Assembly (NCBI GenBank): GCA_036172245.1
Contig: JAYWIR010000028.1
Coordinates: forward strand, 2,914,001 to 2,967,228
Direction: 5' to 3'
Length of the DNA: 53,228 nucleotides
From: Raillietiella orientalis
Taxonomy: Eukaryota
Shown: piece by piece, positions 13,384-53,228 of the stretch
How the letters are laid out: every line of letters begins with the position of its first letter
How positions within the stretch are numbered: position 1 is the stretch's first letter
Notes under the pieces: generated by a model
Told to the model about the DNA's origin: nothing
What the model saw: only the letters and a program-made list of their open reading frames with translations
Database searches by the model: none
Program-made: the position numbers and the translations under genes

Positions 13384-13388
13384 TGCTG

Positions 13389-25800: not shown

Positions 25801-26414
25801 AGGTGTTCATCGAGGAACGCATGGTCCGGCGATCTCTCCATCCCGGGCTCACCAGCAAGCAAGTTTTGCACGCGCACGGACGCGCATACCTCGCTCACCA
25901 GTTGCTTCTCCCTCAAGCGGCATCTCTCCTCTGTTAGCAGGTGGACGTTGAAGTCTCCTGCAAGGAGGTGCGCCACGTTAGGGCCGGAGTCAGCGAGCCA
26001 GCGGCTGCGCAGGCCACCCAGGAATGCAAGTCGCTGGGCGTAATGCCGGCCGCCGCTCGGCGCGTAGATGTTCGTAACGACCAGGTCGATCGATTCGGAC
26101 CACTTGAGGACAAGTTGGCCCACACGACCTTCCTCGTCGAAACAAACGTTCCGCACCGCCTCCGCCACGCTGCCTCGGACGAGGAACGCGACTCCGCACG
26201 TGTGCGCGGAGCCTTGCCGCCAGTGTAGCGTCCCGCCCGCGCGCTCTTCCAGATCCGATGCCTGCCGTACGGAGATGCTATGTATCTCCTGCAGCAGCAC
26301 CAGATCGAACGCGCGCAAAGCGTTGGCTACCGTCCGCCTTTTGTCAGCATCACGTAGCCCGTTGACATTCCAACAGGCCACGCTGACGCGACGAGCGGAC
26401 GCGAGTCCACGCAT
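22851..26414 (-). pseudogene. ORF2 of E10 (1188 codons including the stop; endonuclease, RT, Cys domain), one frame with internal stops
   Basis: ORFs 25419-26429, 24993-25325 and 22851-24980 share a frame. The stops at 25419 and 24993 replace Trp codons. All motifs are present. Confidence 0.93.
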
Positions 26415-28357: not shown

Positions 28358-29492
28358 CCCAGTGGACGCACTCGGGCACACCACACACAAGAAGACGGAA
28401 AGGAATCACGCTCGTGGAGCAACACAGAACACGTCCGTACTCCGTTGTCGTTTAGCGTATTCCCGACCGCTGCGAAAAAGAACTCGACGCTACCGACGAC
28501 AGCCCCTCTGTTGACTCTGTCAACAGCGAGGAGAGCGAGCCGGCGGCGTCGTCCGTCATCGACACCACCATCGATGAGGTAGCCTTCGCGCGAGCCGCGT
28601 AGGATCTGGCAGCCTCGTTGCAGCCAGAACCCTCCAAGGCTGGCAAGAAGGCCGTAAGGCGTCCGGCCTCCCCTCAGGAGTCCCCCTCTTTCGACTTCGA
28701 GGTGGAGGCCGGAAGCGCAGCCTCCGTTTCCACGGCACCCCGCAAGAAGTCTGGACGTAATTCCACAAAGCCGAGGAAGCTCGTCTTCCACGTCGAGGGG
28801 GAAGAGATGGCTTCCGCAAGTGAGGGTGCCATGAGCGTGGGAAACTCGCAGGACCCGTCGCCCGAGAGACTCCCACGCGCGGACACGGAGGGGATGGAAG
28901 GGGTGGAGGCCGAACAGGTGCCTCAGGTGCCTGATAAGGCCGAAACCCCCATGGACATCTCTCCCGCCTCGTAAGAGGCTGGCTGCCCCACACCTTAATC
29001 TTCCCAGCAGTAATGCCGAGAATCTCCTCCCGCCGTCGTCTGCGCATCGCCGTTTGGAACGTGAACGGCATGACAGACGCCGGAAGGAGACGAGACATGG
29101 CCGCCCTTCTGGAGTCCTAGGACCTTTCGCTGCTGCAGGAGATCCACGTGATCTCTGCAGAACAAGCGCAAGAGATGGAACCGATCTCCGGAGGGCGGCT
29201 ATGGTACAAGTGTGGGAGACCAAAAAGTTGCGGTGTCGCCTACCTGCTTCGTACAGCCGTCGAGACCGCTGCGCAAGGCGTGCGGCTGGACGATCACGGT
29301 CGTTTCGGCCAGCTGACTCTCAGGTGGTCCGACTCGATCGATCTGCTCGTCACGAACGTGTACGCACCGAGCGGCGCGGACCTGATGACCAGGAGGGCGA
29401 GGAAAGAGTTTTTCCTTGCCCTCTGGCTAGATTGGCTGACCGAGGAAGGCGTGCGGAATGCCCATCTGGTTGCAGGCGATTTCAACGTTCGC

Positions 29493-31860: not shown

Positions 31861-32853
31861 ATTTCAACGTTCGCCTGAAACCAGATGGGCAGAATCCCGA
31901 GCGTAACCTGGTCAACGAGGTGTGCATGGCGGTGCACACCTGTAATTTGTTGGCCAGTGCACCGAAGATGGAAGACAGCATTGACCACGTGTTTCTTGAC
32001 GAGCACCTGTGCCCTCGCGTGGGCAGGCGCGGCAAGTTATTGTGCGAGCTGTCCGACCATCACCCGCTAGTCTACGAGATCCACTCGCGCGACAGGGAAT
32101 CCCTCGTCCGCGTGGCGTCTCCCAGGGGACTAGCTGAATCTCCCGGACGCGGCGGAACATCTCCGCACGTTCATGCGGAGCTTCAGGCTGCGGACACTCC
32201 AGGATTGGGACCGCTTCAAGCGGTTGGTCCAGAAGTTCTGCGACCAGTTCCCTCTGCACCGCCTACCCACGGGTTTTGGGACCGGGGTCCGTAACAAACG
32301 AGCCTACCTGCAGGCTCGTCGTTACGCCAGGACCCCCGACATTCGCAGATTGGCGGAATACAAAGCGGGAGCCGAGAGGCAAGCCTGGCAGTCCGGACTG
32401 GCCAGGTTGCTAGACGATCAGGGCCAGGTGCACTCGGTATCCGCCCAAATCCGCGGCCTGCTGCGGAGTTACTACTCCTCCCTGTATGCCAGGGCACCTA
32501 CGAAGAGGAACGTCTCACGACTTCTGCTTCCGGAAGGCGCTTTAGCGAACAAGGAGGACGACAGAAAGACCCGCGAAGAGCCTTTCAGAATGGACGAGAT
32601 CCTCTCGGCCATCGGAAAACTCTAAAGGCCCATGGCTCCAGGAGAGGACGGCCTGCACGCGGAGTTTTACCAAACTTTCGCGGCTGAGCTTACCCCATGG
32701 TACAGCAACTCACCTTGCTGATACGCGAGACAGGTGACGTGTCCGCCTCGTTTCGTTCAGCAAAGGTGCGGCTCCTCCCTAAGGGAGGAGATCTGAGGAG
32801 CATGAACAACTGGCGTCCCATCACAATAGTGAATGCGGACGTTAAGTTGCTAG

Positions 32854-35840
32854 TTGCCACCCGGTGACGCCAGGGCGTTTATTACAAATTTTCTATGATT
32901 CCTGGTACGAGGCCCTACTACGGCCAACTTAGCTGGACCTGTCGGGTCGCCGGTACGGAGACCGGCGCGACTCTCCTCAGCAGCGGAAAGGGATGGGAGA
33001 AAAAACAAAAAAAATAAAACATAAAGAAAAAAAAGATTTGGCAGGGTTGGGGAGGGATCACTGACCACTGGGAGGAGGGTCCATCCTTTGCAGGATGCCC
33101 TCGAGGTCCGTCCGTATGGTTCCCAGGTGAGGCCATCTGGTCGCAATCCGCAGGTAGCGGACTGCAAGTACGACGGCATCCCAGTCGTGGCTCGGTCTTC
33201 TGACGTCGCTCCAGCACGTCACAATCCTGCGTACGCAGCAAAGTGCAGCCAGGGCAGCGGCTGGACGCAGGGCATCCTGCACGAACACAAGGCGAAAAAC
33301 GTCTCTGTGCTGGCTGCTCTCTTGGATCCGTAGGGAGGCAGGAAGACGTTCCCACAGGGTTCGGAGGGCAGCACAATCAACAAGGAGGTGGGGGAGGGTT
33401 TCCTGTTCCCTACATATGATGCAGGTAGGATCTACTTGACCCCTGGTCCAGTGGTGGCGGCGTGCGTTGCAGGGTAGACCCCAATGCAACAACAGAAGCG
33501 CCGACTCCTGCCACTTCAGGGGGAGGATCCTAGAGCCAATTAATACTGGGGCCACTTCATATCATCCGGCTGGACGCCAAGGAGCTCGCCCCATCTCTGA
33601 AGTCTTCTCGGCTGGACACTAGCGGTAGTGGCGTTTGCCAGTTCTTCCGTGGACCAGCCGCTTATCAACTTCTCCTTGCCTGCGATGTGGCAGGAGACTT
33701 GCCACCTAGGCTTGCGGCTGCTGGAGAGCGCCCTACTCAGGAAAAGCATCGCCGTGGCTTGAGGGGTTGTCTCTGCCCACGTGCTTCTCGCGGGACACTG
33801 GAGTATCTTCCGCAGAGTGCAGCGGGAATAGGCGCCGTGTCGTAGGCAGTTCCACATCTCTCCGTTCTTCTGGTTTATCTTCACCCACGTGCCAGCTGTC
33901 TCCTCCAGCCATGCGGAGGAGTTGGGAGGGTTGCATACCATCCAGCCGTTTTCCTTAGCCAGAGTTGCCATGCGTCCTAGGAGAAGTCCGCATCTCTTAA
34001 TCTTCCTGCCACGGCACAGAAGTCAAGACGCGAGACCCTCCGTCCCGGATACACGGCTGGAAAGAAGTCGGGCCGGAACGCATCAAGGGGTGTTTCATAA
34101 CTTCGCTGCGATGGCGAGAGTTCGCCACCACAGCTGAATCTCTGGTCGCTCCATCGTCAAGAGGCCGAAACCGCCATCCCGACGTGGAGCACACATGTCC
34201 TTCAACGGGAATCGGGGCCTCCCTCTTTCCCTAACGGCAATTCTCAGGAGTTCCTTCGTCTGTATCTTCAACTCTCTGGATACGGAACAAACAAAAAGCA
34301 GGGGGCGGAGGATAGGAGTTGCGAACGCGTTCCACACCGCGGCCCGTTCCGGAAGGAGAAAGTTGTCTTGAAGGAACGGGCCGATCGGCGTTTTCACTTT
34401 TTGGAGGCAGCCGGACCACGCTTCCGTAGGGGAGTAGTCGCCCAACGGCACACCAAGGTACTTCAAGCACCTCGCCGTGGGGATCCCCAAGCGGACCCAG
34501 TCCTGCTGCCCAGCCCACGCCGCACCGACTGCAACCAACGTCGACTCCGCCCTGTTCACCGTAAGTCCGGTCCCGCGGCTAAGCAGATCGAAGAAATCCC
34601 CGACCGTTTTCGCCGGGGTGGACATCGGCAACAGAAGCAAAAGATCGTCGGCGTACGCTGCTACGGCGGGCGTGCCGGGGCACGAGCTCGGCAAGGGGGC
34701 CAAAGTCACCCTGTACGCTCTCATCACCAACTCAAAGTAGGTGCTGAAGTGCAGGGGACTGAGGCTGTCGCCCTGCCGTATGCCCCGCCGTACCGGCACG
34801 CCTTACGCCAGTTGACCTCTGAAAGAGATATTGATCAGCGCGCTGCGCCAGCAGGAGCGCAGTTAGCTCAGTAAGGAGGGAGGAAAGCCCATGCGTCCCA
34901 GGAGCTCAAGCAGGAGAACCTGTTTAACGCAGTCAAACGCTTTATGCAGATCGACTGCGATCGCTAGGGCTCTCTTCCCCCCCTGGGAGTCCTGTCCCTG
35001 CTTTGCTAACGCCCCCAAAGCGGGGCTGCCATTCGCTCCGTCTTTCATTTCTTGACTACACTGCACATGAAACCATGTGCTCGCGAAGAAGAGGTTGGCC
35101 TCCATACTTTGCCCGGGAACAGCGTAAGTCTGCTCCGGGCTAATTATGGAATTGGCCACCTGCCCCAGACGCGAAGCTCACAGTCCGGCGATCAGCTGGG
35201 CGTCCGTATTCACAATTGTGATCGGACGCCAGTTGTTGAGTTTCGTGAGTTCTCCTCCTTTCGGAAGGAGCCTCAATCTGGCTGACCGAAACGAGGCGGG
35301 TACATCGCCTTCATCTCGGATCGGCCTTGTCAATTCAAGCACCAAAGGTGCCAACTCTGCCGCGAAGCATTGAAAAAACTCCGCGGGCAGGCCGTCGTTC
35401 CCTAGTGCTTTCCGCCTCTTGAGCCTTTTGATACCGACGAGAATTTCGCCGGTGGTAAAAGGCTCGTCGAGGCTTTCCTTCTCCTTCTCCCCTATTGCCG
35501 GTGCACCGTCCGCAAGCAAGCGCCGAGAGGCATCTTGGTCCGGGAGCGCCCTGGCGTGAAGGGAGGAATAATAACGCCACACGAGATGCCGTATTTTAGC
35601 CGGAACCGAGTGCTCTCAGCTCTGGTCGTCCAGCAAGCTGGCCGACCCGGATTGCCAGCCTTGACGTTCGGCCCCGGCTCGGTACTCTGCCAGGCGACGG
35701 ACATTGGGAGGGGGGGTCCTCGCGTAACGACGGGCATACAAGTACGCTCGTTCTTTAAGGATCCCCTCTTCAAATCCCCGGGGCATGAGGTGCAAGGGGA
35801 ACTCCTCGCAAAACTCGCTGACGGAGGCCTTAAAAAGGTA
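32854..35840 (-). mobile_element. E12: subfamily C LINE 3' part (linker, RT, Cys domain, 3'UTR)
   Basis: ORFs 35178-35582, 34863-35159, 34095-34799 (YADD) and 33058-33555. The element ends AATAAACGCCCTGGCGTCACCGGGTGGCAA. Confidence 0.9.
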
Positions 35841-37744
35841 AAATCAGCGAGATTGTGGGGAGTCGAGCGGATGTGTCTTTTCGCTGCTCCTGAGTTTCGA
35901 TTTCCAGTGGTGTTTTGTGTGGTGTGGGTGGAGGATTAGGCAGCAATGCCTGATTCCACCACCTGTGAGATTCCGGGGGCGATGACCTTATTGTCTCCGG
36001 AGGAGATGGAAGTGGGGCTCTTGCCCCCACTTATGCGCCCCCGGCCCTACCCTCGGCTTGGAACGCCGTGGCTGCCGCGCCCACGCCGGCGGCTGTGGCG
36101 GATATGCGGGCCTACCTGGAGGAGAGGTACAACCCACCCCTCCTATACAAGCTAGGCGGATTATATTCTCCCGAGAACGCGCGCGCCTTCTCGCCGGCGA
36201 TGCGCGCTCTCGACGTAAAAAAGGAGGAGCTTCTGGCAATGTCCGTCAGAAGCGGGGTCAATTTGTAGGAGTTATCTGCAAGGAGTCAACTCTTGCGCAG
36301 AGACTTTTGCGAACCCCCGTAATTATGGCAGCCAGAGGCTTCTTCCAATAACGGAAAACAGGTCGGTGATCATTCACTTGACCGAGATTACGTTCCGGAT
36401 GACCAAGGAGGCCGTCCGGAACGAAATAAATAAATTTGCGACCGTCCACGCGCTGTGGGGGAAGCCAAACCCGTTTGCGGATTAAAACGGGTTGCTTGGC
36501 AGCCCGGGTGCAGCGCGAGTGACGGTTCGCGAAGAATGTGAGTTTCCCCACAAACTCACCGTCAACGGTGAATCCGTCGATGTGTGGTACGTGGGGAAAC
36601 CCAAGTTCTGCGACTGCTGCAGCAGCTTTGGACACCTCAAAATGAGGTGTTTGAGCGTGCAGTGCCAGCAATGCAAACAAGCCGGGCTGACCCGTCTGGT
36701 GTGCCCCCAAAACACAGTCCGCATCGTGTTCGCAAAAAACGCGAGAAAGCGCGCAGCTAAAAAAAGAAAGAAGCTGGCAGCTCGTGCTGCTCCTAAGGAG
36801 GTCACCTCCGCCACCAAGGTGAAGGCCAGCCCCGAGAACCCGGCGAAAAACGCCAAAAAGGTCGAACGCGAGGATCAAGAGCCAGGGTGGCAGAAGGTCG
36901 ACCCCAAGAAAAACTCTCCTAAGAAGGCAAAGAACGTGGCGAAACGGAGCGAAACCGCTCCGCGCTGCGAAAAAATTAAAAGCTGCTGCGTCGTCGTAGA
37001 GCGGATTCCCGCCATCGACGAATGCGGCGCTAAAGAACTCGCTGCTGCTCGCCTACTCAACCCTCCGTTGCCAAAGTCAACAAGGAGGGGAGCGAGGCGG
37101 CGGCGTCCGTCATCGCGCCCACGCTCGATGACGTCGAATTCGAGTGCGCGTGGAGCTGGCTGCCTCGTTGCAGCCGGCCGCCCTCAAGGCTGGCAAGAAG
37201 GCCGTCAAGCGTCCGGCTCCCCCTCAGGGGTCGGCTACTTCCGACCCCGAGGTGAAGGCCGGAAACACAGCATCCATCTCCGCGGCACCCTGCAAAAAGG
37301 CAGGACGAAAGTCCACAATGTATCGGAAGATCGTCTCCCCCGACGCAGGGGAAGAAATGGCTTCCGGTAGCGAGGGTGCCATGAACGTGGGAAACTCCCG
37401 GGACTCGTCGCCCGAGAGAATTCCACGCTCGGACAAGGAGGGGATGGAAAGGATGGAGGCCGAACAGGTACCCCAGGTGCCTGAAGAGGCCTTCGTCCTC
37501 GTTCCGATGGTCCTCGTACCGATGGACCTTTCCTACACCTGCCCCGCGGCAGGTGACGCGACGCCACTTTCCCAGTCATAATGCCGGGAATCGCCTCTCC
37601 CCGTCGCATGCGCATCGCCGTTTGGAACGTGAACGGCATGACAGACGCCGGAAGGAGACGAGACATGGCAGCCCTTCTGGAGTCCTACGACCTTGCGCTG
37701 CTGCAGGAGATCAACGTGATCTCTGCAGAACAAGCGCAAGAAAT
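35841..37744 (+). mobile_element. E13: A-like LINE 5' part (5'UTR, disrupted ORF1, first 55 codons of ORF2)
   Basis: GCGGATGTG near the start, WYVGKPKFC knuckle region, TAATG at 37579, then WNVNGM...LLQEI. Confidence 0.88.
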
Positions 37745-40530
37745 TTCTCATCCGGTCACGCCGGGGCGTTTATTCCATATAACATAACCAAAAAAAGCAA
37801 TTATACAAAATAAACCAGTTGGGAACCAAACTCTCAACCGACGACTGAACAAGAATGAAGAGAATATTGCTGGCACACAAGCCAGAGTAACAGTTTTGTA
37901 AACGGTGTGAGGGGGCGGGGAACACAAAGAAACCAAAATAAAATAAAAACAATGAATAAGGAGGACGGGATAAGGGTCTTTGGGATCGCTCTGGAAGACA
38001 CGGGGATAAAAGCATGGCCACCGGAAATTTTACCGAGCGAACGGGGAAGGGGTATGGGTAAGCGAGAGGTCGCAGGGGTCACCGGATTACACCGTTCTCA
38101 AAGATGTGTAAACCGGCAATGTATGCCGGTGATGTCCTCATTCACCTTGTCACGAAGATGAGACCACCTTGAAGCCTTCTCCATGAATTTAGCTGCAAGT
38201 AGGTGAGCCTCCCTTCGCTGCGCTGAAAACTCCAGAGCGTAGCGGACCTTCACGATGGCGCGAACGAAACACATGGTTGCGACAATCGCGCCAACCGAAA
38301 GTCCATTTCTGCTGAAGCAGCGATGCAGCACATGAATGGCAGTGCCTTTTTTTGGCATGATGGCCGAAGTGAGCCTTGGCCACAGTTCCCGGAGGTCACC
38401 GCAGTCCAGCAAAAGGCGCGGAAAAGGCTCGATCTCTGCCCACCTTAAACATTTTGGCAAAGCAGCTCCCCCGGAAACGACGCTTCGCTGCCTATTTCAG
38501 TGTAATGCGCAATGTAAAAAGAGCAGCACATCTTGTTTCCACTTAAGAGGGAACACGGAGCTGTCCAAACAAACGGGGGGAAACACTATCTCTTTGGGGG
38601 GCACACTTAATTTTTCGCTCCACTGAAGCAGTCTCTTCGCCCGAATCCGAGGTGTGGCGGCTTGCACCAGCTCCTTTGTCGTCCAGCTGCCGAGGAGCTT
38701 ACTGACTCCCGCGATTTTGCAGGAGAACTCCCATTCCGCCGGTAGGCAACCGTCGTTGCTTGCCGTGAGGGCAGACAGCGCTGCGGCGAGTGGTGTGGCG
38801 GCCAGACGATCTGACAACTTCCTGTCCTGCATGACTTCGTCCATTTGATGACTGAGGAGATGTCGCAGGCGTCGAAGATCTTCCGGGCGCGTTCCTTCGG
38901 AAGCTGCCCACGATGAAAAAGATTCCTGCCGCCATGCATTAATGTTCATGGGGCGGCAGCAGATCCAGCTTTGAGCTTCCAGCAGTAAGGACAGCTGCCT
39001 CAGCGGGAAGCCAAACCCTATTCTCGTGTGCCGAAAGTGGGGTAGCAACGAAAGCAGTGACTCGCTTCCCGTGCAGCGCCTCAGTAGAAGGCGTGCGGGT
39101 GAGCACCACGGCGTACACCACAGCTTGGCACAGAGCCGCAGCATGCGAAACTGCACCTGCAGTTCGATGCTGTTTAAGTCGAGGATGCCCAAGCCTGCAT
39201 CCTGACGCGGCGCCACCAAGTCTTTAAGTCTAACACGGGATCTTGCAGCGCCCCACAACGCTTTGCGTAGAAGGCGCTGCGCCCAGACTTTGACTTCCTG
39301 GGGGGGTGGACAAACAAAAAACAGGGGGCGGAGGAGGGGGGCAACGAAGGTGTTCCAGATGCAGGCCCGTACCGGGAAGACAAACTCGCCTCCTGAAAAC
39401 GGGCCAAGTGCACGCTCTGCCTTCCGAAGGCAGTCCGACCACGCTTCTGAGATGCAGAAGTCGCTCAACGGCACGCCAAGGTACCTGAGGTACCTGCCCG
39501 TGGGGATTCCCAGGTCGATCCAGTCGGACTGTCCCTCCCACGTCGCACCCACCGGAACAACCATACACTTACTCCTGTTAACGCTCACGCCCGCACCGCG
39601 ACGAACCAACTCAGAGAAGTCTTCGTGCGATGTCGCCGGGGTGAACATGGGCAACAGGAGAAGCAGGTCGTCGGCATAGGCTGCCACGGCCGGCGTACCT
39701 GGAAAGGAGCTCGGAAGGTTGGCTATCGTCAGCCTGTAAGCCTCCAGCACCAATTCAAAATAGATGCTGAAGAGCAGCGGGCTTAAGATATCGCCCTGCC
39801 TAATTCCTCGCCTAACCGGCACGCCGTACACGCGACAGCCACTGAAAACAATGGTTGTAATCGCGTGGCGAAAGCCGTAGCGCAAGTACGCCAACAGGGA
39901 TGCCGGAAGACCCAGACGTTCCAAAGTCTCAAGAAGAAGCTTTTGGTTCACGCAATCGAAAGCTCTGTGCAAATAGTCTGCTGCCGCCAAGGCTCCCGGT
40001 GTCTCCCTTTGCGTCCCGCGCCTCCGTCGGTGAGAGATCAAGGGCGTGCTACCGCACGACGATCCACCGCCACACGATGCTGCAATTGCAGCCATGTGCA
40101 TAGGAACAAGAGATTCGTGTCCATGGACCGCCCAGGAACAGCGTACGTCTGCTCCGGACTTACCAAGGATTCCGCGATCCTAGCTATCCGCGCCGCCCGA
40201 AGTTTCGAGAACAACTTGACGTGCGAATTCACTAATGTGATCGGACGCCAGTTGTTCAGTTGGCACAAATCTTCACCTTTCGGCAGTAGAAGCACCTTCG
40301 CTGAGCGAAACGAGGCGGGGACATCACCCGAGTCTCGCATCAGCGACGAGTGTAGGAGCACCAGGGGGATGAGCTCCGCCGCAAAACACTGGAAGAATTC
40401 CGCTGGGAGTCCATCTTCGCCTGGCGCTTTTCGTCTCTTGAGCCCCGAGATGGCCGAGGAAATATCCCCAGCCGTGACGGGCTCATCAAGACGCGCGCGT
40501 TCCTCCTCGTCTACAACAGGTGCATCAATC
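37745..40530 (-). mobile_element. E14: B-like LINE 3' part (RT, Cys domain, 3'UTR)
   Basis: KAPGEDG and WRPITL (ORF 40038-40613), YADD (ORF 38497-40101). The element ends AATAAACGCCCCGGCGTGACCGGATGAGAA. Confidence 0.9.
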
Positions 40531-40533
40531 GCA

Positions 40534-41283
40534 GATCTCCGCAGATCAAGCAACGGACATCGAGCGTATTTCGGGTGGACGGCTGCTGTGGCGTTTCGGT
40601 ACCGCGAAATCAAGCGGTGTCGCCTTCCTCCTTCGGCCAGTCATGGAGACCGCAATAAAGGACGTTCGGTTCGATGACGCAGTTCGCGTCGGTCAGCAGA
40701 CTCTCAGCTGTTCCGACTCTATCGACCTGGTCGTCACCAGCCTATACGCTCCTAGCGGAAACTCCGCATTGAGGGCGAAGGCAAGAAAGGAGTTCTACCT
40801 TGTCCTCAGACGCAATGCTGACCGATGCAGGAGTTCGCAAAGCGCACCCGATCGCAGGTGATTTCAACCTGCGCTTGCTTTCAGGTGCGCCGGAGACACT
40901 GAACGACCGCGTCAACGAGTTGTGCGCAGAAATGAACACGCGCAACTTGTTGGCCGGGGAAACGGCCATGGAAAGCAGCATCGATCACGTGTACCTTGAT
41001 CAGCAACTATGCTCTCGGGTGGGCAGGCGAAGCAAGGTACCATCCGAGCTGTCGGACCATGGTCGGATGATGTTCGAAGTGCGTCCGCACGACAAGGACC
41101 CCCCCTCGTCAACGTGGCGTCTGCCAGGGGACTGGCTGAAGTTTCCCGACGCGGCGGAACACATCCGCGCGTTTATTGGGAGCTTCAGGATGCAGACACT
41201 TCAGGACTGGGACCGCTTCAAGCGATCGGTCCAGGAGTTCTGCGACCATTTCCCCCTGCATCGCCTACCTGCGGGATTTGGGG
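40534..41283 (+). mobile_element. E15: internal endonuclease fragment of an A-like LINE
   Basis: ISADQATDIERISGGRLLW, LYAP, GDFN, IDH, SDH, ending at LPAGFG. Confidence 0.85.
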
Positions 41284-43385
41284 TTTCCAGCCGGGTACGC
41301 TCTGAGCGTTTATTGAAAAAACACAACAATAACGTAATACTAGGCCCCACTAACGGCCACACAACACCAGACCTGCCGGGGCGCCGGGACGCAGCCCGGC
41401 GTGACGTTCCTCGGCTGTGGAGAGGGATAGGGATCAAAACAAAAAGAAAAATAAAGATAAGGAAGACAAAAAAAGAGTTTGGAGGAAGAGGAAGGGATCA
41501 CAATGCACTGGGAGGAGGGCCCATCCTTCGCAGGATGCCCTCCAGGTCCGTCTTCGTGCTTCCCAGATGGGGCCATCTCGCAGCTCTCCGCATGAAGCAG
41601 ACCGCATACGGGATGACGTCCCTCGCGTTGGCATCTACTTCTGCGTGGTGAATGTCGCTCCAGGCCGCCCCGATACCCTGGATGCAGCAGAGGGCTGCGA
41701 GGGCTGCGGCTGGCTGCAGGTCGTACCGCACGAAAAGGGGCCGAAGAACGTCTCTGGGCGCGCTGCCCATTGGGAGCCCGAGGGTCGTCCCGAACCGTTC
41801 TCACAGGGTTCGCAGGGCAGCACAGTCAACAAGTAGGTGGGGGAGCGATTCCCGCTCCCCACACCTGGCACACTTAGGCCTTACACTTCCCCGCGTCCAG
41901 TGGAAGTGGCGCGCGTTGCAGGGTAGACCCCAGTGCAACAGCAGAAGCGCCGACTCTTGAGACTTCAGGGGGAGAAGCCTGGATCCGATTAATATTAAAG
42001 GCGACTACTGGTCATCCGTCAGGATACCGAGCAGCTCGCCCCATCGACGAAGTCCACGAGGGAGGGCACTCGGGGTTGTAACATCTGCCAGTTCTCCCAT
42101 GGTCCAACCGCTCATCTTCTTTTCCTTGCCTGCGATTCGGCAGGAGACTTGCCACTTTGGCTTGCGGCCGCTGCTTAAAGCCCTGCGTAGGAAGAACAGG
42201 GTCGAAGCTAGAGGGGTAGTCTCCGCCCACGTTCTCCTGGCGTGACACTCCAGAGTAGTCCGCAGTGTGCAGCAGGCGTTGGGGACGAATCGCATTTGGT
42301 TCCATTCCGGGGAAGTCTGGAGGTTCAGCTTGGCCCACGTCGCAACTGATTCCTCCAGCCAGGCGAAAAAGTTGGCGGGGCTGCATAGCGTCCAGCCGTT
42401 GTCTTTCACCAGGGCTTCCATGCGCCCAAGTAGAAGGCCGCATCTTCTGACCTTCCTGCCAGTGCACAGAAGGTACGACGGGAGTCCTTGCATCCTGGAC
42501 ACACAGCTGGCGAGGATTCGGTCCAGAACGCACCAAGATGTGCACCATGACTTTGCTGCGATGGCGAGGGTGTGCCATCGCAGCTGTATGTGCAGGCGCT
42601 TTAGCGTCAGGAGGCAGAGACCGCCGTCCCGACGAGGAGCGCATAAGTCATCTAGAGGCACACGTGGCCTCCCTCTGCCCCAGAAGGCGATGCGGAGTAG
42701 GTCCTTTGTCCTCTTTATAATGTCACGGGGGACATGACAAATTAAAAGCAGGGGGCAAAGGATGGAAGCCGTGAACGCGTTCCACACCGCGGTCCCTTCC
42801 GGCAGAAGGTACTTGCCTTCCAGGAACGGGCCGATTGCCAACTCTACCTTCTGGAGACGACCTGAACAGGCTGCTGCGAGGCAGAAGTCCCCCAACGGGA
42901 TACCCAAGTACTTCAGGTAACTGGCCGCGGGGATCCCCAAGCGGATCCAGTCAGGCCGTTCGACCCACGTCGCACCCACCGGTACGACCGACGACTTCGC
43001 CTTGTTTACCCGAAGTACAGACCCACGACTTAGCAGGTCGAAGAAATCCTCGACTGCGGCTGCCGGGGCTGACAAGGGCAACATGAGCAGAAGGTCGTCG
43101 GCGTATGCTGCTACAGCGGGCGTGCCGGAGCACGAGCTGGGCTGGGCAGCCAAAGTCACCCTGTACGCTCTCAGCACCAACTCAAAGTAGGTGCTAAAGA
43201 GCAGGGGACGAAGGCTATCGCCCTGCCGTATGCACCTCGGCACCAGCACGCCGTACACCTGTTGCTAGATGAACTGATTTCAACGATGAGGTTGCGGCAG
43301 CAGCACCGCAGGAAGGAGAGAAGAAAGGGTGCGAAGCCCATGCGACCCAGGGGCTCCAAAAGAAGCTCCTGGTCAACGCAGTCGA
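41284..43385 (-). mobile_element. E16: subfamily C LINE 3' part
   Basis: DCVDQELL, IRQGDSL and YADD (ORF 42005-43258). The element ends AATAAACGCTCAGAGCGTACCCGGCTGGAAA. Confidence 0.9.
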
Positions 43386-43413
43386 CCGCCTTCTGCGCTC
43401 TAAGGCGGACGTG
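43379..43413 (+). promoter_or_regulatory. Putative internal Pol II core promoter of E17 (Inr-like CAGT and DPE-like GGACGTG)
   Basis: The A of CAGT is at 43380 and GGACGTG starts at 43407 (+28). The motif recurs at the 5' ends of E9 (21464), E10 (28436, minus), E21 (48103) and E13 (GGATGTG, 35869). Confidence 0.6.
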
Positions 43414-44516
43414 TTTTCTCGGTGCTCGTTGTGCCAGGAAGTCTCCCCCAGTGCAAGCGTCGTGTGGTTCGGTGGTCGATCAGGCAGCGATGCCTGACGC
43501 GATCACCAGGGATGGCCAGGAAGCAGCCGCAACACCGCCCATAGAGGCGATGGAAAGCCAGGGGGCGGCAGCAACGTCGCCCCAGAGGCGATGGAGGTGG
43601 GGGCATCCGCCCTTACAGAATCGGTCCCCGCTACAGCGCATGAGTAGAGTGCCGTTGTGACGGCGCCATCGCCCGCAGCCGGGGCGGAATTGTCGGCCTA
43701 TGTAGAGGAGGGGTACAAACCCTCATTGTTCTACAAGGTAGGCAACCTATATTCTTTAGAGAGCGCGCGCACCCTTTCGAAAGGCATGCGCGCTCTCGAT
43801 GTGAAAGTGGAGGAGCTCAGCGCTATGACCATCCGCAGCGGGGGTCAGAACGTTGAGGTCATCTGCAAACAAGCAGAGTTGGCCCAACGACTGCTTAAAA
43901 CCCCCGTTGTGATGAGGACGCGCAGGCTCCTCCCCACTTCGGCGAACCGCAGCATGGTGGTCCACCTGTTAGGCGTAACCGCGCGAATGCGCAAACAACA
44001 GGTTCGCGCCGCTCAAGAACAATTTGGAACGATACACGCGCAGTGGACGAAAGTTAGTTATTTCGAGGACTACACGGGGCTGCAACACGGCCTCACGGCT
44101 GCGCGTGTGAATGTTCGGCAGGGCTGCACTCTTCTCCACAAACTGGTGGTCGGCGGCGAAACCGTCGACCTCTGGTATGTAAGGAAGCCGAAATACTGTG
44201 GCTTCTGCAATTCGTCGGGAAACTTCGAAAAAAGGAGCCCAACGTGCAGTGCCAAGCATGCGGCACAATGGGGCACACGAGGGAGATGTGCACAAAAGCA
44301 GCAGTGCGGGTGGTTTCCAAGAGAAACCCCAGAAAACGCGCACGGCTTTTGCAGAAAAGGCTGGCGGCGAAATCTGCGGCGAAGGCTGTGCCACCCGCGC
44401 CGAAGGCCCAGGCCGCACCCGAGACCCCGACGAACAACGCCGAACAAGTCGAGGGAACTAGCCAGGAGCCTGGGTGGCTGGTGGCAACAGCCAAAAAAAC
44501 AAAAAAAGAAAGAAGA
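43379..44516 (+). mobile_element. E17: subfamily A LINE 5' part (5'UTR and most of ORF1)
   Basis: Colinear and closely similar to 21439-22570 of E9; ORF 43657-44529. Confidence 0.9.
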
Positions 44517-44519
44517 TAT

Positions 44520-45010
44520 GTCAGAGTAGTCTTTAGTGCTGCAACAGGAGAGCCGAATCCTGCCATTTCAAGGAGAGGGAGGAGGTGTTCATTAGTACCG
44601 GGGGCCACTTCAAACGTTCAATGGGAGCGTCAAGCAGCGCGCCTCAACGTAGAAGTATATGGGGAGGCGTACTCGGGGTCGCAGCGTCTGTTAACTGGCC
44701 CGTCTTCCACTCTCTTATCTTCTTCTGCTTTCCGGAGATTGTCACTGTAACCTATCACTTCGCCGCAACATCGCTTTTTGGATCTTACATCAGGGAGGGC
44801 AACGCAGCAGCAAGGTAGGTTCTTCCTGACCACGCTCCTTTCTTTGGATCTTCCAATATCTCGCGGAGCGTGCAACTTCTGTAACCCCGAAACAGGAACC
44901 TTCGTTCCTGTTGGGAGCGTTGGATGCCGAACTGTCCCCGCGTTCGAACGGTTTCCTGCAATCAGGGACTACCGATCAAAGGGCGACAGGTGACAAATCC
45001 ATGGATTTTC
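44520..45010 (-). mobile_element. E18: inverted internal ORF2 fragment of subfamily A with no terminus
   Basis: The reverse complement matches E8 ~20325-20805, e.g. CAGGAACGAAGGTTCCTGTTT and GAGCGTGGTCAGGAAGAACC. Confidence 0.8.
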
Positions 45011-45019
45011 TGTGTTAGC

Positions 45020-45736
45020 GCGAAAGATTAGGAGGGCGGTTGTACTGGCGATGCGGCGCCCGCAACACTTGTGGGGTCGCGTTCTTCCTAGAGCCAGCCA
45101 TTAACGCGGCCGTAAAGGACGTGCGCTTTGGGGACGACGGACGGATCGGCCAACTGATTCTCAGATGGTCCGATTCGATCGACCTCATCGTCACCAATGT
45201 GTACGCTCCTAGCGGTAAACAGGGATACCAGCAGCGCAACGCGTTACTGGAAACCTTAAAGCGCGTATGGCTGGTGGACGCGGACGTGCGAAAGGCGCAT
45301 CTGATAGCAGGGGATTTCAATGTCCGTCTGCTCTCAGATCAGCCCGGAGCACAGGGGAACGCGATCAACGAGTTGTGCGCCGCCATGCGCGCGCGCAACT
45401 TGTTGACAGAAATAAGCGGGATGGTCAACAGCGTGGACCACGTCTTCCTCGACCAAGACCTGTACACACGGGTAGGAAAACGAGGGACACTTGGATCGAC
45501 GCTGTCGGACCATTCCCGGTCAATATTCGAGATGCGCCCGCGCGACAAGGGACCGCCATCCAGGGATTGGCGTATGCCAGGGGACTGGACGCGCCTGTCA
45601 GGAGCGAAAGAACATCTTCGCGAATTCCTGCGAGGCGTCACCCTCCAGAGTGTCGCGGATTGGGACCTATTTAAGGACTCGGTCCGGGAGTTCTGCGAAC
45701 AGTTCCCAGTGCAACGTCTGCCCCGGGGATTCGGCG
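45020..45736 (+). mobile_element. E19: internal endonuclease fragment, C-like
   Basis: The ORF from 45040 has NVYAP, GDFN, VDH and SDH, ending at LPRGFG. Confidence 0.85.
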
Positions 45737-48100
45737 TTGCCACCCGGGTACGCCCGGGGCGTTTATTTATAAAAACTCTACAATTGCGGTACCAGGCCCC
45801 GCTCACGGCCTTATGCACGGGACCTACCGGGACGCCGGGACGCAGCCCGGCGTGGCACTCCCCGGCAGCGAAAGGGGATGGGGAAAAACAAAAATAAAAA
45901 CAAAAAAGCAAACAAACAAGTGAGGTTGGGGGGCAGGGAAGGGATCACTGTTCGCTGAGAGGAGGGCCCATCCGTTGAAGGAAGCCCTCGAGGTCCATCC
46001 GTAGATTCCCCAGTTGGGGCCATCCAGCAGCTCTCCGCAAGAAGCGTTGGGCATATGGGATGACATCCCTCGCGTGTTGACCCACTCCTTCCTTGTTGGT
46101 GTCGCTCCATGCCGCCACGATGCCTCGGACGCAGCACAAGGCTGCAAGGGCTGCGGCTGGCTGCAGGGCGTCCTTCACGAAGAGGGGCCGAAGAACGTCT
46201 CTAGGGGAACTGCCCGTTGGGAGACCGAGGATCGTCCCAAACCGTTCCCAAAGGGGACGAAGGGCAGCACAGTCCACAATAAGGTAAGAGAGCGATTCCC
46301 GCTCTCCGCACCTGACACACGCAGGATCCACAACTCCTCATGTCCAGTGAGAGCGGCGTGCGTTGCAGGGTAAACCCCAATGCAACAACAGCAACGCCGA
46401 CTCTTTCCACTTAAGGGGCAGGATCCTGGATTCCTGAAGAAGCGGGGGCCACTTCAGCACATCCATAGGGATGGCCAGCAGCTCGCCCCATCTTCTTAGT
46501 CCTCGCGGCTGGACGCTCGGTGTCGTGGCGTCGGCCAGTTCTCCTGTTGTCCAGCCGCTGATCAACTTCTCGCGTCCCTCGATGCAGCAGGAGACTTGCC
46601 ACCTTGGCGTACGGCTGCTGCGAAGTGCCCTCTTCAGGAAGGGCAGCGCCGTAGCTAGGCAGGTCGTCTCTGCCCACGTGCATCTTGCTGGACTCTCCAG
46701 GAGATTCCGCAGCGTGCAGCGGGCGTAGGGGCTGCATCGGAGACGATTCCACGTTTCGTGGCTCCTCTGGTTAACCGCTGCCCACGTTCCAATATTCTCC
46801 TCCAGCCAGGCGGGGGAGTTGGCGGGGCAGCAAACCATCCAGCTGTTCTCCTTGGCCAATGTTGCCATGCGCCCGAGCAGTAGGCCGCATCTTCGCATCT
46901 TCCGGCCACGGCTCAGAAGAAAAGACGCGAGTCCATCGCACCGGGACACACGGCTGGCCAGGAGGCGGGCCGGAGTGCACCAAGGGGTGCTCCACATCTT
47001 CGCTGCGATGGCGAGGGTTCGCCACCGCAGCTGCTTCTCCACGCGCTCCAGCGTCAGGAGGCCAAGACCGCCGTCCCGACGCGGAGCGCACAAGTCCTTC
47101 AGAGGGACTCGGGGCCTCCCCTTGCCCCAAAGGGCGATACGGAGGAGGTCCTTTGTCCTCTTCTTCGATTCCACGGTGGGGGGGCAAACAAAAAGCAAGG
47201 GGCGGAGGATGGGGGCCGCGAAGGCGTTCCAAACCGCGGCCCGTTCCGGCAAGTGAAACTTGCCTTCCAGGAACGGGCCGATCGCCGTCTCGACTTTTTG
47301 GAGGCAGCTGGACCACGCTTCCGCAGGGGAGTAGTCCCCCAACGGCACACCAAGGTACTTGAAGCACCTCGCCGTGGGGATCCCCAGACGGACCCAGTCC
47401 TGCTGCAATGCCCACGCCGCACCTATTGGCACAACCGACGACTTCGCCCTGTTAACCTGCAGTCCGGTCCCGCGGCTGAGCTGATCGAAGAAGTCTCCGA
47501 CCGCCTTTGCCGGGGTGGACATTGGTAACAAGAGCAGAAGATCGTCGGCGTACGCTGCTACGGCGGGCGTGCCGGGGCACGAGCTCGGCAACGGGGCCAG
47601 AGTCACCCTGTACGATCTCAGCACAAACTCAAAGTAGGTGCTGAAGTGCAGAAAGCTGAGACTATCTTCCTGCCTTATGTCCCGCCGCAACTGCACGCAA
47701 TGCACCTTGTGACCGCTGAAAGAGACGGTATTTATTGCATTCCGCAAGCAAGAGCACAGGTAGGAAATCAGGGAGGGTGGGAAGCCCATGCGACTTAGGA
47801 GCTCCAAGAGGAGGTCCTGGTCTACATATTCGAACGCCTTGTGGAGGTCGACTGCCAGCGCTAGGGCCCCCTTTCTTGCCCGTGGTTTCCTTGCTAGCCC
47901 GGCTGGCGGCCCCAATGTGGGGTTGCCGACTTTCCCTATCCCTTTCTTCTCTCTTCTCTGCAGGTGCACCCATGTGCTTGCGAAGAAGAGGTTGGCATCC
48001 ATACTTCGACCGGGAACAGCATAAGTCTGCTCCTGGCTAATTACGGATTCTGCCACCTGCCTTAGACGCGAAGCCCATAGCCCTGCTATTAACTTGGCGT
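45737..48100 (-). mobile_element. E20: subfamily C LINE 3' part (RT from AKLI onward, Cys domain, 3'UTR)
   Basis: DLHKAFE, YADD, KYLGVPLG, CVRCGERES. The element ends AATAAACGCCCCGGGCGTACCCGGGTGGCAA. Confidence 0.92.
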
Positions 48101-48302
48101 GCGGACGTGTTTTTGTAGCGCTCCTCCGTGCCTGGTGTAAAGCGGTTGATTTCGATTGTGTTTGTGTGTGAAGCATCTGCGGTGTCCAATGGCAGAAATG
48201 CCTGAGGACACCGCGACTGATATAGGAGGGGGAGAGGCTTGCTCCTCTCCCCAACCCACAAAGGTGGGGGCAACTGCCCCCACGGAGGCGACGGCAGCCG
48301 CA

Positions 48303-48470
48303 CCCCTGGAAAAGGGGGCAACCGCCGCCTCGGAAGTGAGGGCAAAGGCACCCTTGAAAAAGGGAACAAAAGCCCCGCTGGAACAGGGTGCAACCGCCTT
48401 CTTGAAAAAGGGGACAACCGCAACCCTGCAAAAGGGCGCAACCGCCTCCTTGAAAAAGGGGGCACCTGCA
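48303..48470 (+). repeat. Seven degenerate 24-bp tandem units in ORF1 of E21
   Basis: PLEKGATA, ASEVRAKA, PLKKGTKA, PLEQGATA, FLKKGTTA, TLQKGATA, SLKKGAPA. Confidence 0.85.
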
Positions 48471-49898
48471 CCCTCGAAAGCGTCTTCGGCATCGCCGAAG
48501 ACCTGGAGTTCACTGGCTGCAGCCCCATCTCCTGCAGCCCTCTCCGAGCAGAAAGCCTACCTGGAACAGGGATGCAAGCCGTCCTTGATATACAAGGTAG
48601 GCAATCTGTTTATCGGGAATACCGCTTGCAACTTCGAAAGGGAGTTGCAGCGGTTGAATGTAAAAGAGGAAGTCCAGGAAGGTCTTTCCGTGTTGAGTGG
48701 TGGTCAACGGGTGGAGGTGACTTGCAGAAATGCAAGCCTTGCTAGACACCTCCTAAATACGCCAATCACACTAGAAGGACGAAAGGTTTTCCCATTAACG
48801 GAGGATCGCTCCGTGGTGACGCACCTCACGGGAGTCACCCTCCGCATGTCAAAAGCCGACGTGCAAAGGGAACTCGGAAAATATGGAACGGTTCACGCGC
48901 TATGGAAAAAGCCCAACGTCTTCCAGAGTTACGGAAGGCTGTTTAGTGGCATGGCTGTTGCGCGTGTAACCGTCCACGAAAACGGTGGGCTACCCCACAA
49001 ACTAGACGTCGGCAACAAGACAGTCGACGTCTGGTACGTGGGCAAGCCCAAGTACTGTGGACACTGTGATGCCACAGGGCATCTGAAAAAGCGGTGCCCC
49101 CACATCCAGTGTTTCCACTGTGGAGAGAAGGGCCACCTCCGCAAAGTGTGCCCGAAACGCGAACCCCCGGCTCCCGCTGCCTTGAAAAAGGCCAAAGGGA
49201 AACGCGCGGGGGCTACGGAAAAGTTTGCGAAGGCACCCGCGAGACAGAACCCACAGCCGGAGCCCGAGCCCGTGCAGCAAACGTTGGTCGTGGAATCTAC
49301 CAACGACGCTGAAAAGAGCGAAGGCTGGCAGAAGGCGAAGCAGAAAGCGAAGAAAACAAAGAAAACCGAAGGGTCGACAGCGGAACCCGCGACGTCTCCT
49401 TTAAATAGGAGACAACGCCGCGCGTACATCCGCGAATGTTCGGTCGCTTTGGAGCGTGTGGGGGTACCCGGAACCGCCACCGGGAGAGATATCCCCCGCG
49501 TAGACGCCGACGATAACGCGATCACGGAAGGCGAACCCTCTGTGCAAACAGAGGTTGAACCGCGCGACGCGCTCGCCTCGATCGACGAGGCCGCCTTCCA
49601 GCAGGCGGCGGAAGAGCTCGCGGCCGAACTCGCCGACCGTGCGAACGGCGCGCAAAAGAGCTTGCGAAGGCCGGCCGCGACCAGGGCACCTCCGACAGGT
49701 GACCACGACCCGGATGCCGGAAGTGCGTCCTCCTCCACGGAGGCGCCTCCGAAGAAGACTGGACGGGAGTCCAAGAATTCCAAGAGGCGCATCCTGACGA
49801 GGAGCGAGGCGGACGCACCGGCAGCCGAGGGGGAAGCCGGCAGCGTGGGAACGGAGGGAGGAATTTTCCCACCCTCCGCCACCGAGCAGCCGACCACC

Positions 49899-50135
49899 CC
49901 ATGGAGGAGGGGGAGCAGGTAGGGCATTGCCTCCACCTTCCACCGGTGGAGCCTGCAGAAAAGATGGTCATGGAAGAGGGGGAGAAGACAGCTGAGAACC
50001 GCTCCCCTCTGCCGTCCAACGCAGCCGAGGAATCGGCCCCCATGGAAGAGGGGAAGCAGGTGCGTGAAGCATGCTCCCTTCAACCGTTGCGGTCCGCCGA
50101 GGAATCGCCCCCCATGGAGGTGGGAGAACCGCTGG
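49899..50135 (+). repeat. About four degenerate ~70-bp units (MEEGE...) at the ORF1 C-terminus of E21
   Basis: CATGGARG recurs at ~49900, 49969, 50041 and 50114. E5 has only two units (~9235 and ~9303). Confidence 0.7.
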
Positions 50136-50399
50136 GCGGTGCCCCCATGCCTCCATCCGTCCCACCCGACCAGGTGGCGGGAGCCCAATTGCCACTTTCC
50201 TGAAAATAACACCTGGGCTCGCCTGTCGCCGTCGATTACGCGTGGCCTGCTGGAACGTGAACGGGCTGCGCGACGACGGCAACAGACGGGAAACGGCCGC
50301 CACCCTGCGTGACTTCGACCTGGCACTCCTGCAGGAGATCCACGTGATCACCGCGGAGAACGCCCAGGAGATCGAAAGGATCGCAGGGGGACGGTTGAT

Positions 50400-51477
50400 T
50401 GTCACCCGGGTGCGCCGGGGCGTTTATTATAAACTATCCGGGAACAGGGTTCCCGGACAAAGGGGAAAACAAGAGACCAAAGGGGTGGGATCCCCGACAC
50501 GCAGGTCGGCATGCCGAAAGTCCGGAACGGGAGGGAAGGGACCACAAACACACTACTATATAAAAAAATAAAAGAAAAATGTGGAGGGCAGGGGACAGGG
50601 GTCTTTGGTAAATCCGTTCCTTCCTTTTAAAACCGGCGATGGATGCCGGCGATCTCTCTCCTTACGCCCTGCGGCAGATGGGCCCATTGGGCAGCCGACG
50701 ACATGTTTGCGCTGGCTAATCCGGTGGGCTGACGAAGGATGGCCAGCTTCTCCAACTCTCGGTGGGCCTTGTCGATGGCGCGGGTGCAACACACGGTTGC
50801 AACGACAGCACCCAATGACAGGCCGCCTGGCGTGAAGAAGCGGCGCATCAACTCCCTCGCGGTGTCCCCCTGGTGCAGGAGAGCTGAGGCCAGCCTCCGC
50901 CAGAGTCCTAGAAGGGCACTGCAGTCCAGGAGCAGGTGCGGGAGCGTTTCCACTTCCCCGCACCGCTTACAGTTTGGGGAGACGACTCCCCCGGAAACAA
51001 GGTTCGTGCGCTGGTTGGAGTGAAAACCCCAATGCACCAGCATAATCACATCCTGCTTCCACGGAAGGGGGAACACAGAAGTGTTCAGACACGAGGGAGG
51101 AACCACAAGTTCTTCAAGGGGCACACTCAAGTGTTCGCTCCACCGAAGGAGTCCCTTCGGAACGTGGCGGGGCGTGGCGGCGTCCGCCAGCTCGCAAGTC
51201 TTCCAGCCGCCAATAGGTCGCGTTGTTCCTGCGATGGTGCAGGCGACCTCCCATCTCGCCGGTTCGCAACTGTCATCTCTTGCCCTGAGGGCTGACAGCG
51301 CGTCTTCGAGGGGGATGACGGGCAGGCGGGTCCACTTCTCCTGGCTGTTGCACACCTCATCCACCGTGCAGTACGGGGAGAGGTGAGCGCAACGGAGTTC
51401 CAGGAGGGAAACATCCTGGTGCTTTGCCCAGCCATGCAACGGTTCCTGCCGCCAGGCTTCAAAGTTCGTTGGGCTAC
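50400..51477 (-). mobile_element. E22: 5'-truncated (1078 bp) subfamily B LINE inserted antisense into the endonuclease of E21 with a 13-bp TSD
   Basis: GGGGACGGTTGAT occurs at 50387-50399 and 51478-51490. The sequence is closely similar to E6 9591-10666. Confidence 0.95.
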
Positions 51478-53228
51478 GGGGACGGTTGATGTGGCAATGC
51501 GGCTCCCGATACACCTGCGGCGTCGCGTTTTTCATGAAACCGGCGGTCGACGCTGCCGTAAAGGGCGTGCGCTTCGACGAAGCCGGTCGTGTCGGCCAGC
51601 TGATTCTCAGGTGGTCCGACACGATTGACCTCGTCGTAGCAAACGTATACGCCCCGAGCGGTTATAACAGGTAACGGGAACGCCCGGCGTTCCTGGAAAG
51701 CCTGGAGCACGAATGGCTGGTGGAAACGAACGTGCGCGTGGCTCACCTGATAGCGGGAGACTTTAATCTCCGCCTGCTATCAGGTGAGCCACACGCACAA
51801 GAACGGACGGCTAACGAGTTGTGCGCCGCCATGCGCACGCGGAACTTGTTAGGGGATCTTTCGGAAATGGTCAGCAGCATCGATCACGTCTTCCTAGATG
51901 TCCACCGCTGCTCCCGGGTCGGCAAACGGGGGAAAGTTGCGTCGGAACTGTCTGACCATTACAGATTAATATTCGAAATGTGCCCGCGCGAAAAGGGACT
52001 TCCATCCAGGGCGTGGCGGTTGCCTGGGGACTGGACGCGCCTCTCAGAAGCGAAAGAACACCTTCGCAAATCCCTGAGAGGCGTCACCCTCCGCAATCTC
52101 GATGATTGGGACCTTTTTAAGGCCTCGGTCCGCGAGTTTTGCGAGGAGTTCCCCTTGCACCTTCTGCCCCGGGGATTTGAGAAGGGGATCCGCAACGATC
52201 GAGCGTACTTGTATGCCCGTCGTTACGCGAGGACCCCCCAATGTCCGTCGCCTGGCAGAGTACCGAGCCGGGGCCGAACGTCAAGCCTGGCAATCCGGAT
52301 CGGCCAGCTTCCTGGACGACTAGGGAAGGGAGCACTCGGCTCCGGCTAGAATACGGCACCTCGTGCGGCGTTATTATTCCCTTCTTTCCGGCAGGGCACC
52401 CCTGGTCCAAGAAGTTCCTCGGCGCTTGCTTTTGAACGGGGCCCCGGCAATAGGGGAGGAGGAGAAGGAAAGCCTCGACGAGCCTTTTACCACCGGCGAA
52501 ATTATCGCCGGTATCAAAAGGCTCAAGAGGCGGAAAGCACCAGGGGAGGACGGCCTGCCTGCGGAGTTTTTTTAATGCTTCGCGGCAGAGTTAGCATCCC
52601 TGGTGCTTGAGTTGACAAGGCTGATCCGAGATGAAGGCGATGTACCCGCCTGGTTTCGGTCAGCCAGAGTGAGGCTCCTTCCGAAAGGAGGAGACCTCAG
52701 GAAACTCAGGAACTGGCGTCCGATCACAATTGTGAACACGGACGCCAAGTTGATCGCCGGACTGTGGGCTTCGCGTCTTGGGCAGGTGGCCAATTTCATA
52801 ATTAGCCCGGAGCAGAATTACGCTGTTCCCGGGCGAAGTATGGAGGCCAACCTCCTCTTCGCAAGCACATGGTTTCATGTTCAGTGTAGTAAAGAAAAGG
52901 AAGAGGGAAGGATTGGCAGCCCCGCTTTGGGGGCGTCAGCCGGGCAGGGACAGGACTTCCAGGTGGGGAAGGGAGCCTTAGCGATCGCAGTCGATCTGCA
53001 TAAAGCGTTTGACTGCGTGGAGCAGGATCTCCTGCTGGAGCTCCTGGGACGCATGGGCTTCCCTCCTTCCCTACTGACCCACCTGCGCTCTTGCTGACGC
53101 AGCGCGCTGATCAATATCTCTTTCAGAGGTCAAATGGCGTACGGCGTGCCGGTACGGAGGGGCATACAGCAGGGCCACAGCCTCAGTCCCGTGCTCTTTA
53201 GCACCTACTTTAAGTTGGTGCTTAGAGC

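Follow-up and report, generated by a model that had tools for sequence, protein, structure and literature searches.

Probable recurrent antisense insertion of related LINE copies at a DxKL-coding site of sister elements in a nested cluster

Introduction

We analysed a stretch of 53,228 nt of Raillietiella orientalis DNA (assembly GCA_036172245.1, contig JAYWIR010000028.1, forward strand, positions 2,914,001 to 2,967,228), referred to in its whole length as the window. From ~6.7 kb rightwards it consists of fragments of one repeat family on both strands: about 20 fragments of a long interspersed nuclear element (LINE) are nested into one another within ~46 kb, and 18 insert–host relations can be read from this window alone. 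We focus on two closely related inserts, E12 and E21, whose junctions with their respective hosts, E9 and E20, fall at the two edges of one homologous 15-mer in the reverse transcriptase (RT) coding region. These junctions probably reflect repeated, site-preferring insertion of one lineage into sister copies at the codons of the RT motif DxKL.

Nested clusters of this kind have been described in green algae for the L1-type LINEs Zepp (Chlorella/Coccomyxa) and ZeppL (Chlamydomonas), according to the sections consulted of two studies (PMC3446292, PMC8226300). In the part of the first that treats Coccomyxa C-169, Zepp is given a GC content of 61% compared to 53% for the genome and clusters of up to 42 kb (PMC3446292).

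Results

Junctions of E12 and E21

The second open reading frame (ORF2) of the near-complete copy d, 1203 amino acids (aa) long, serves as the reference for all ORF2 positions given here, and the coordinates of the features are collected in Table 1. The original prediction placed a 15-mer at the edge of each of the two hosts, and both were found where it had put them: ACGTTAAGTTGCTAG on the plus strand ends E9 directly before the 3′ end of E12, and ACGCCAAGTTAATAG on the minus strand opens E20 beside the 5′ end of E21, each occurring exactly once in the window. Their proposed homology is borne out as well. Both cover the same codons, from position 2 of Asp499 to position 1 of codon 504, and they differ at 4 of 15 positions. 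E9 reads AAT GCG GAC GTT AAG TTG CTA G up to nucleotide 32853, and the minus-strand tail of E12 finishes at 32854. From 48100 on its own (minus) strand, E20 runs AC GCC AAG TTA ATA G, i.e. it begins inside the Asp499 codon, and homology between E20 and E21b begins exactly at 48100. The canonical 5′ end of E21, GCGGACGTG, opens at the adjoining nucleotide 48101. E12 and E21 both lie antisense to their hosts, with junctions 15 nt apart in homologous host coordinates.

For the E9 junction, we made use of run X1, a public run (share 0.07) of many short contigs that was compared with window positions 32500–52499. Compared with the copies of the nest, 217 of 297 X1 contigs could be placed, mostly at 90–95% identity, and the run likely stems from a related strain or species in which the cluster exists in a version of its own. 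Up to 32853, one of its contigs follows E9; beyond this base, where the window has E12, it shows 19 letters of unbroken host coding sequence, CCAAGATGTGGGCAGAGCG. Translated by hand, these letters give A-K-M-W-A-E, the RT continuation that is expected here (cf. copy c). Since this contig runs on past 32853 with host sequence, it represents an uninterrupted relative of the host and fixes the E9 breakpoint to the base.

Both inserts had been assigned to a single lineage, C, and the comparison agrees: E12 and E21 are nearest relatives with 90% identity over 1122 nt, they form a 995-nt inverted repeat at 90%, and they appear as sister rows in the tree (support 90/92). Because they overlap over 1.1 kb, they are two copies and not the halves of one. 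Compared with copy c, identity is 85% for host E9 (over 990 nt) and only 75% for host E20 (over 1415 nt), which groups with copy h and E12 (support 100/100), being nearer to E12 than to h (85/82) even though it shares the insertion site of h. Twin priming, which we considered for head-to-head pairs of minus- and plus-strand copies, was ruled out for E20/E21 at an identity of 75% (83% over 151 nt).

Towards its 5′ side, E12 reaches ORF2 aa ~277, where it is interrupted by the 5′ end of E13 (35867, plus strand). E20 itself sits antisense in copy p at ORF2 codon 312/313. The first open reading frame (ORF1) of E21 is contained in an open frame of 590 codons (48150–49922), its own D-A-K-L site at 52742–52756 is intact, and its 3′ end lies ~1.9 kb or more past the window edge. 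The 8-mer GCGGACGT, with which full-length copies start (21462, 43405 and 48101), recurs in the form of Ala-Asp-Val codons at the DxKL target of E9 (32835–32842, plus strand) and of copy a (11933–11940, minus strand). The left edge of the 15-mer splits it as GCGG/ACGT, and its occurrence at the target may be due to chance.

Table 1 Coordinates of copies, junction sequences and spacer within the window
Feature	Position	Strand	Description
Copy a	9590–14748	−	In host z at ORF2 codon 79/80, same host nucleotide as j
Spacer, c 3′ end to GCGGACGTG start of m	21439–21461	+	23 nt; first 10–14 nt antisense host sequence
Copy d	22646–28438	−	Near-complete: ORF1, 1203-codon ORF2 and 3′ untranslated region
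E9, third piece of host m	31862–32853	+	ORF2 aa 170–503
Host 15-mer ACGTTAAGTTGCTAG in m/E9	32839–32853	+	Asp-Val-Lys-Leu-Leu codons plus 1 nt
E12, C-clade insert	32854–35866	−	Antisense in m/E9; 3′ tail ends at 32854
Copy h	41284–43381	−	In host q; 3′ junction at ORF2 codon 312/313, the host nucleotide of E20
E20, C-clade copy	45737–48100	−	ORF2 aa 499–1203 and 3′ tail; host of E21
Host 15-mer ACGCCAAGTTAATAG	48086–48100	−	Start of E20 remnant; presumed left copy of the E21 target-site duplication
E21, 5′ part	48101–50398	+	5′ end GCGGACGTG at 48101; ORF2 up to aa 79
Copy j	50399–51477	−	5′-truncated, antisense in E21; duplication 50387–50398 / 51478–51489
E21, continued	51478–53228	+	ORF2 aa ~76–659, leaves the window

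Target-site duplications of closed inserts

Both flanks can be compared for three inserts, and all three show perfect target-site duplications: 9–11 bp for d (ACGACAACG), 13 bp for e (TTTCAACGTTCGC) and 12 bp for j (TCAACCGTCCCC). In the window, each of these strings is found at its two expected flanks and nowhere else. The duplications around d and e identify the segments 21462–22645, 28443–29492 and 31862–32853 as pieces of one host, m, and a single X1 contig joins 50390 to 51492 across j. Read in insert orientation, CTG follows directly after the duplication in all three inserts (22634–22636 for d, 31875–31877 for e and 50384–50386 for j), which hints at a preference for the second-strand cut.

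Recurrent insertion sites elsewhere in the nest

Insertion sites recur at several other positions in ORF2. The 3′ junctions of copies a and j, which are 95% identical to each other in hosts that are 76% identical, both follow the first base of codon 80. Those of h and E20 both follow the first base of codon 313, at identities of 75% between the copies and 66% between their hosts. Under a Poisson model, two exact coincidences among 10 3′ junctions have a p of 7.5e-6. At the K-A-F-D codons of RT motif A, an exact 5′ flank is common to copies m and n, which are 87% identical. A spacer of 23 nt separates the 3′ end of c from the start of m, and its homologous flank precedes copy n at 43382–43404; with the 3′ junction of c at the m/n site, one 3′ and two 5′ junctions fall together. 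We had first taken this spacer for a 23-bp duplication and revised this assignment: homology to host copies is limited to its first 10–14 nt, and what follows is an additional 5′ leader (...TCTAGG) common to m, n and z. These exact coincidences (a/j, h/E20, m/n together with c) suggest that reuse of exact sites by related copies is the rule in the nest. Reuse of the same nucleotide is seen at the 3′ junctions of a/j and h/E20 and at the 5′ flank of m/n, while for E12/E21 a single 3′ junction and a single 5′ junction are visible at a distance of 15 nt. In its own host, copy g is inserted 26 nt away from the position of the exact a/j site.

To express how often the E12/E21 arrangement would arise by chance, we used a model in which a 5′ junction falls at a distance of 9–23 nt from a 3′ junction in an element of 5.8 kb, both direction and orientation being as required. 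The resulting p is ~0.0013 for one prespecified pair and ~0.005–0.008 if 4–6 same-lineage pairs are allowed.

Two further starts lie close to one of these regions. Copies q (40531) and p (45006), both on the plus strand, start at ORF2 aa ~63–70, near the hot region at codons 72–80, and each start adjoins the 5′-truncated end of a minus-strand copy, g and o, respectively.

Target sequence

A loose target pattern, CNNNNAAYYY, had been proposed for lineage C from four targets listed as they would begin in insert orientation. The second of these entries, CTATTAACTT, is visible as a 5′ flank and not as a 3′ flank. The pattern itself fails: it has 176 matches in the window compared to 217 ± 16 in shuffled sequences, and therefore carries no specificity. 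It had been built on only two independent sites, the sequences of each pair being homologous, and the two sites agree at 3 of 10 positions, which is about the chance level. All four C-clade target sequences begin with C, and no other flank common to the two sites was found. In the tree, E12 is a closer relative of E20 than h is, although it is with h that E20 shares its site; two or more distinct sites are thus in use within the C clade, and not a single loose motif. Inspection of the sites by eye revealed no microhomology or pairing between the 3′ end of the RNA and the primer.

Element family

In ORF2 of copy d, an apurinic/apyrimidinic (AP) endonuclease domain (PF03372 Exo_endo_phos, E 8.9e-15) covers aa 1–347 and is followed downstream by a reverse transcriptase (PF00078 RVT_1), detected in copy d (E 3.7e-20) as well as in E20 (E 3.6e-12). 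ORF1 of E21 carries a CCHC zinc knuckle (PF00098 zf-CCHC, E 1.4e-4, just above its cut-off). Among named proteins, the nearest relatives are of the L1 ORF2 type at 24–30% identity, whereas the closest database protein overall is an unnamed fragment of 619 aa at 60%; named Zepp sequences were not found among the database matches of the family proteins. Given these domains and L1-type relatives, the family is, as placed by domains and protein matches rather than by a tree, a LINE with an AP endonuclease (APE-type) of the L1 group, in a nest that resembles those of Zepp and ZeppL.

All 10 recognisable 3′ ends consist of AATAAA(C/T)G, a short CCCGG...CCGGG inverted repeat and 2–6 A (canonical tail in element sense, AATAAACG...GGGTGGCAA), and the poly(A) that is typical of L1 proper is absent at all of them. 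The tail has a fixed length of 30–31 nt in 9 of 10 cases, copy g having a deviant one. Zepp carries poly(A), whereas the family described here ends in this fixed tail. Covariation was found for 0 of 5 pairs of the predicted 3′ hairpin; its stem of 4–5 bp is invariant, so that covariation neither proves nor disproves the structure. A scan of metagenome contigs for the tail motif returned one match (L001), which we rejected as an unrelated, apparently bacterial coding stretch.

Full-length 5′ ends read GCGGA(C/T)GTG in four copies (m, n, E13 and E21), with near variants in d and z. Upstream of GCGGA, copies m, n and z have an extra leader of 9–14 nt (...TGTCC..TCTAGG; 21449–21461, 43392–43404 and ~8037–8050) that E21 and E13 do not have, and this difference may reflect two transcription start variants in the family. 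Copies e and j are 5′-truncated, and by the reading of the nest so are b, c, q and p.

Anatomy of the nest

The first 8 kb of the window have a GC content of 0.42–0.51 compared to 0.57–0.64 across the rest. Positions 1–6700, with the lower GC content of 0.42–0.51, form the left border of the cluster; their three open frames (155–262 codons) gave no match in Pfam. Written with '>' for 'host of', the left part of the nest reads z > a > b > (c, m) and m > (d, e, E12), and the right part reads E12 > E13 > g > q > h > n > o > p > E20 > E21 > j. The window holds no intact copy of the family. Only d, e, j and c are inserts closed within the window, and the right halves of the other hosts must extend past its right edge. 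The nest is thus unusually linear (8050–53228), with ~13 hosts open at the right edge compared to 4 closed inserts.

Setting aside two of the 18 relations with unclear junctions (z in k1, and o in n, where the junction is deleted), we count 14 of 16 clear insertions antisense to their host (one-sided p 0.002); the remaining two, b in a and e in m, are in sense orientation. The deletion at 44500–44560 fuses n, within ORF1 at ~aa 415, to a point midway in copy o (ORF2 aa ~1061), with loss of the 3′ end of o and of the n/o junction. We also considered whether E13 and q are two halves of one host split by g and ruled this out: the 27-nt overlap between the end of E13 and the start of q is 74% identical and the distances to m2 differ. 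At this identity, the overlap was rejected as a duplication as well.

Discussion

We consider it probable that E12 and E21 arose by recurrent, same-lineage, antisense, site-preferring target-primed insertion at the DxKL-coding site of sister copies. In the mechanism that we propose, new copies would insert into older sister copies and thereby build the Zepp-like nest from ~6.7 kb to the right end of the window. E12 and E21 would be independent copies of one young lineage, each integrated antisense by target-primed reverse transcription into the codons for the RT motif N-x-D-x-K-L in the ORF2 of a sister copy. The endonuclease of the element would nick the host sense strand just after ...AAGTT(G/A)(C/A)TAG (after 32853 in E9), and from the freed 3′-OH the element RNA would be reverse-transcribed, starting at its fixed 3′ tail. 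A second cut would follow ~15 nt away on the other strand, after ...(A/G)(A/G)CGT, so that the 15-mer would be duplicated on both flanks of the insert, predicted to read CTATTAACTTGGCGT after the 3′ tail of E21 and CTAGCAACTTAACGT before the 5′ end of E12. The nick order, the recognition of the site by protein–DNA contacts and the length of the duplication are what we infer from the junctions, and for the E12/E21 site a duplication of 15 bp is plausible.

Several observations weigh against this proposal. One junction is visible per insert (3′ for E12 and 5′ for E21), and a duplication is seen for neither. Among the X1 matches listed, no contig spans 48100/48101, which leaves that junction with no independent check. 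None of the three measured duplications is 15 bp long, and 15, although close to the measured lengths, exceeds every one of them. The DxKL site is uninterrupted in six other copies (a, c, d, g, E12 and E21b), the version in c also starting with CTAT, and is therefore not saturated. No motif is common to the DxKL site and the codon 312/313 site of the C clade, and the 15-nt windows at the recurrent sites are not unusually conserved, with percentiles of 0.30–0.81 in a rough alignment of fragments. Across all 90 pairs of 3′ and 5′ junctions, finally, the chance p amounts to ~0.11.

Measured duplications of 9–13 bp imply that the first nick of E21 may coincide with that of E12 or lie 2–6 nt off. 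They would fit a preference that is regional and not nucleotide-precise, in which both elements entered near the DxKL codons, E21 with an offset first nick and a duplication of 9–13 bp, and the insertion of g 26 nt from the a/j site illustrates that near-misses do occur. The other recurrent sites within lineages are base-exact, however, at a/j and h/E20 as well as at the 5′ flanks of m/n, and we regard a regional preference as rather unlikely. That unrelated junctions came to lie 15 nt apart in homologous coordinates by coincidence draws support from the p over all pairs and from the single visible junction of each insert; yet E12 and E21 are the closest relatives of one another and share their orientation, for which p drops to ~0.001–0.008, and three other lineage pairs behave alike, so that we judge coincidence improbable. 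It is also conceivable that both junctions go back to one ancestral insertion, of which they would be opposite sides, if the block of host and insert had later been duplicated and inverted; one copy shows the left side, the other the right side, and the inserts share 90% identity. The hosts fall into separate lineages, however (E9 near c, E20 with h and E12), and four or more differences in 15 positions, few as these bases are, have a binomial probability of 0.056 if the divergence matched the 10% of the inserts; both points make a single event that was later duplicated unlikely, and with the overlap that identifies E12 and E21 as two elements we consider this origin very improbable.

In a further scenario, the insertions would be guided by RNA: the element RNA would pair with a sister copy in an R-loop, and the displaced host sense strand would be nicked at favoured positions such as the DxKL codons, the nick priming reverse transcription. 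Such guidance would jointly account for three features of the nest, i.e. that all inserts with placeable junctions lie in sister copies, that 14 of 16 are antisense, which puts the inferred first nick on the host sense strand, and that the sites have no common DNA motif. Exact reuse of one nucleotide in hosts that are only 66–76% identical, on the other hand, fits recognition by a protein better, the sites are not unusually conserved at the nucleotide level and two insertions (b and e) are in sense orientation. We therefore give this scenario little credence; if it were true, it would provide an RNA-guided way to build centromere-like LINE islands.

Recurrent, site-preferring insertion at the DxKL codons would have parallels in LINEs of known specificity. 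For R1Bm, whose endonuclease is of the APE type, biochemical work has shown that the bottom strand is nicked first and the top strand second, both at specific positions around a target of 14 bp and with a fixed duplication as the result; this is reported in the section consulted of PMC1919474 and provides a precedent for the cuts proposed here. Multicopy sequences, transposons included, are named as typical targets of target-specific LINEs in the part consulted of PMC4640811. Relative to the R1 and Tx1 clades, the target in the nest differs in that it is the coding sequence of sister LINEs and not rDNA, telomeres or small nuclear RNA genes, and in that one clade uses at least two sites. The L1-group APE-type element Tx1L of Xenopus has a specific target inside the mobile element Tx1D (again from the consulted section of PMC1919474). 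Tx1D is an unrelated DNA transposon, whereas the nested family inserts antisense into RT-coding sequence of its own members.

The likeness to Zepp and ZeppL drawn here is one of architecture, as far as the consulted parts of those studies go: a nested cluster of one self-targeting LINE family that forms a GC-rich island. Base-exact recurrent sites in ORF2 and an antisense bias were not found described there for Zepp or ZeppL, and Zepp arrays are described in these parts as mostly 3′ fragments, whereas several full-length 5′ ends are present here. Two features appear to be new in the light of the literature searched, namely that the target is the family's own coding sequence, entered antisense, and that related copies reuse exact sites, at least two of them in one clade. 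Site-exact Zepp insertion was not found in the parts of the literature searched, which did not extend to the original Zepp papers (Higashiyama et al. 1997, Yamamoto 2003), and an earlier description is possible.

In several green algae, the presumed centromeres are marked by islands of Zepp-type LINEs. If base-exact sites in conserved coding motifs are reused, the clustering of such elements could stem from the specificity of their endonuclease and not from a chromatin mark. The family would then be an APE-type LINE that changed or multiplied its target sites within a single clade, and would inform how target specificity evolves.

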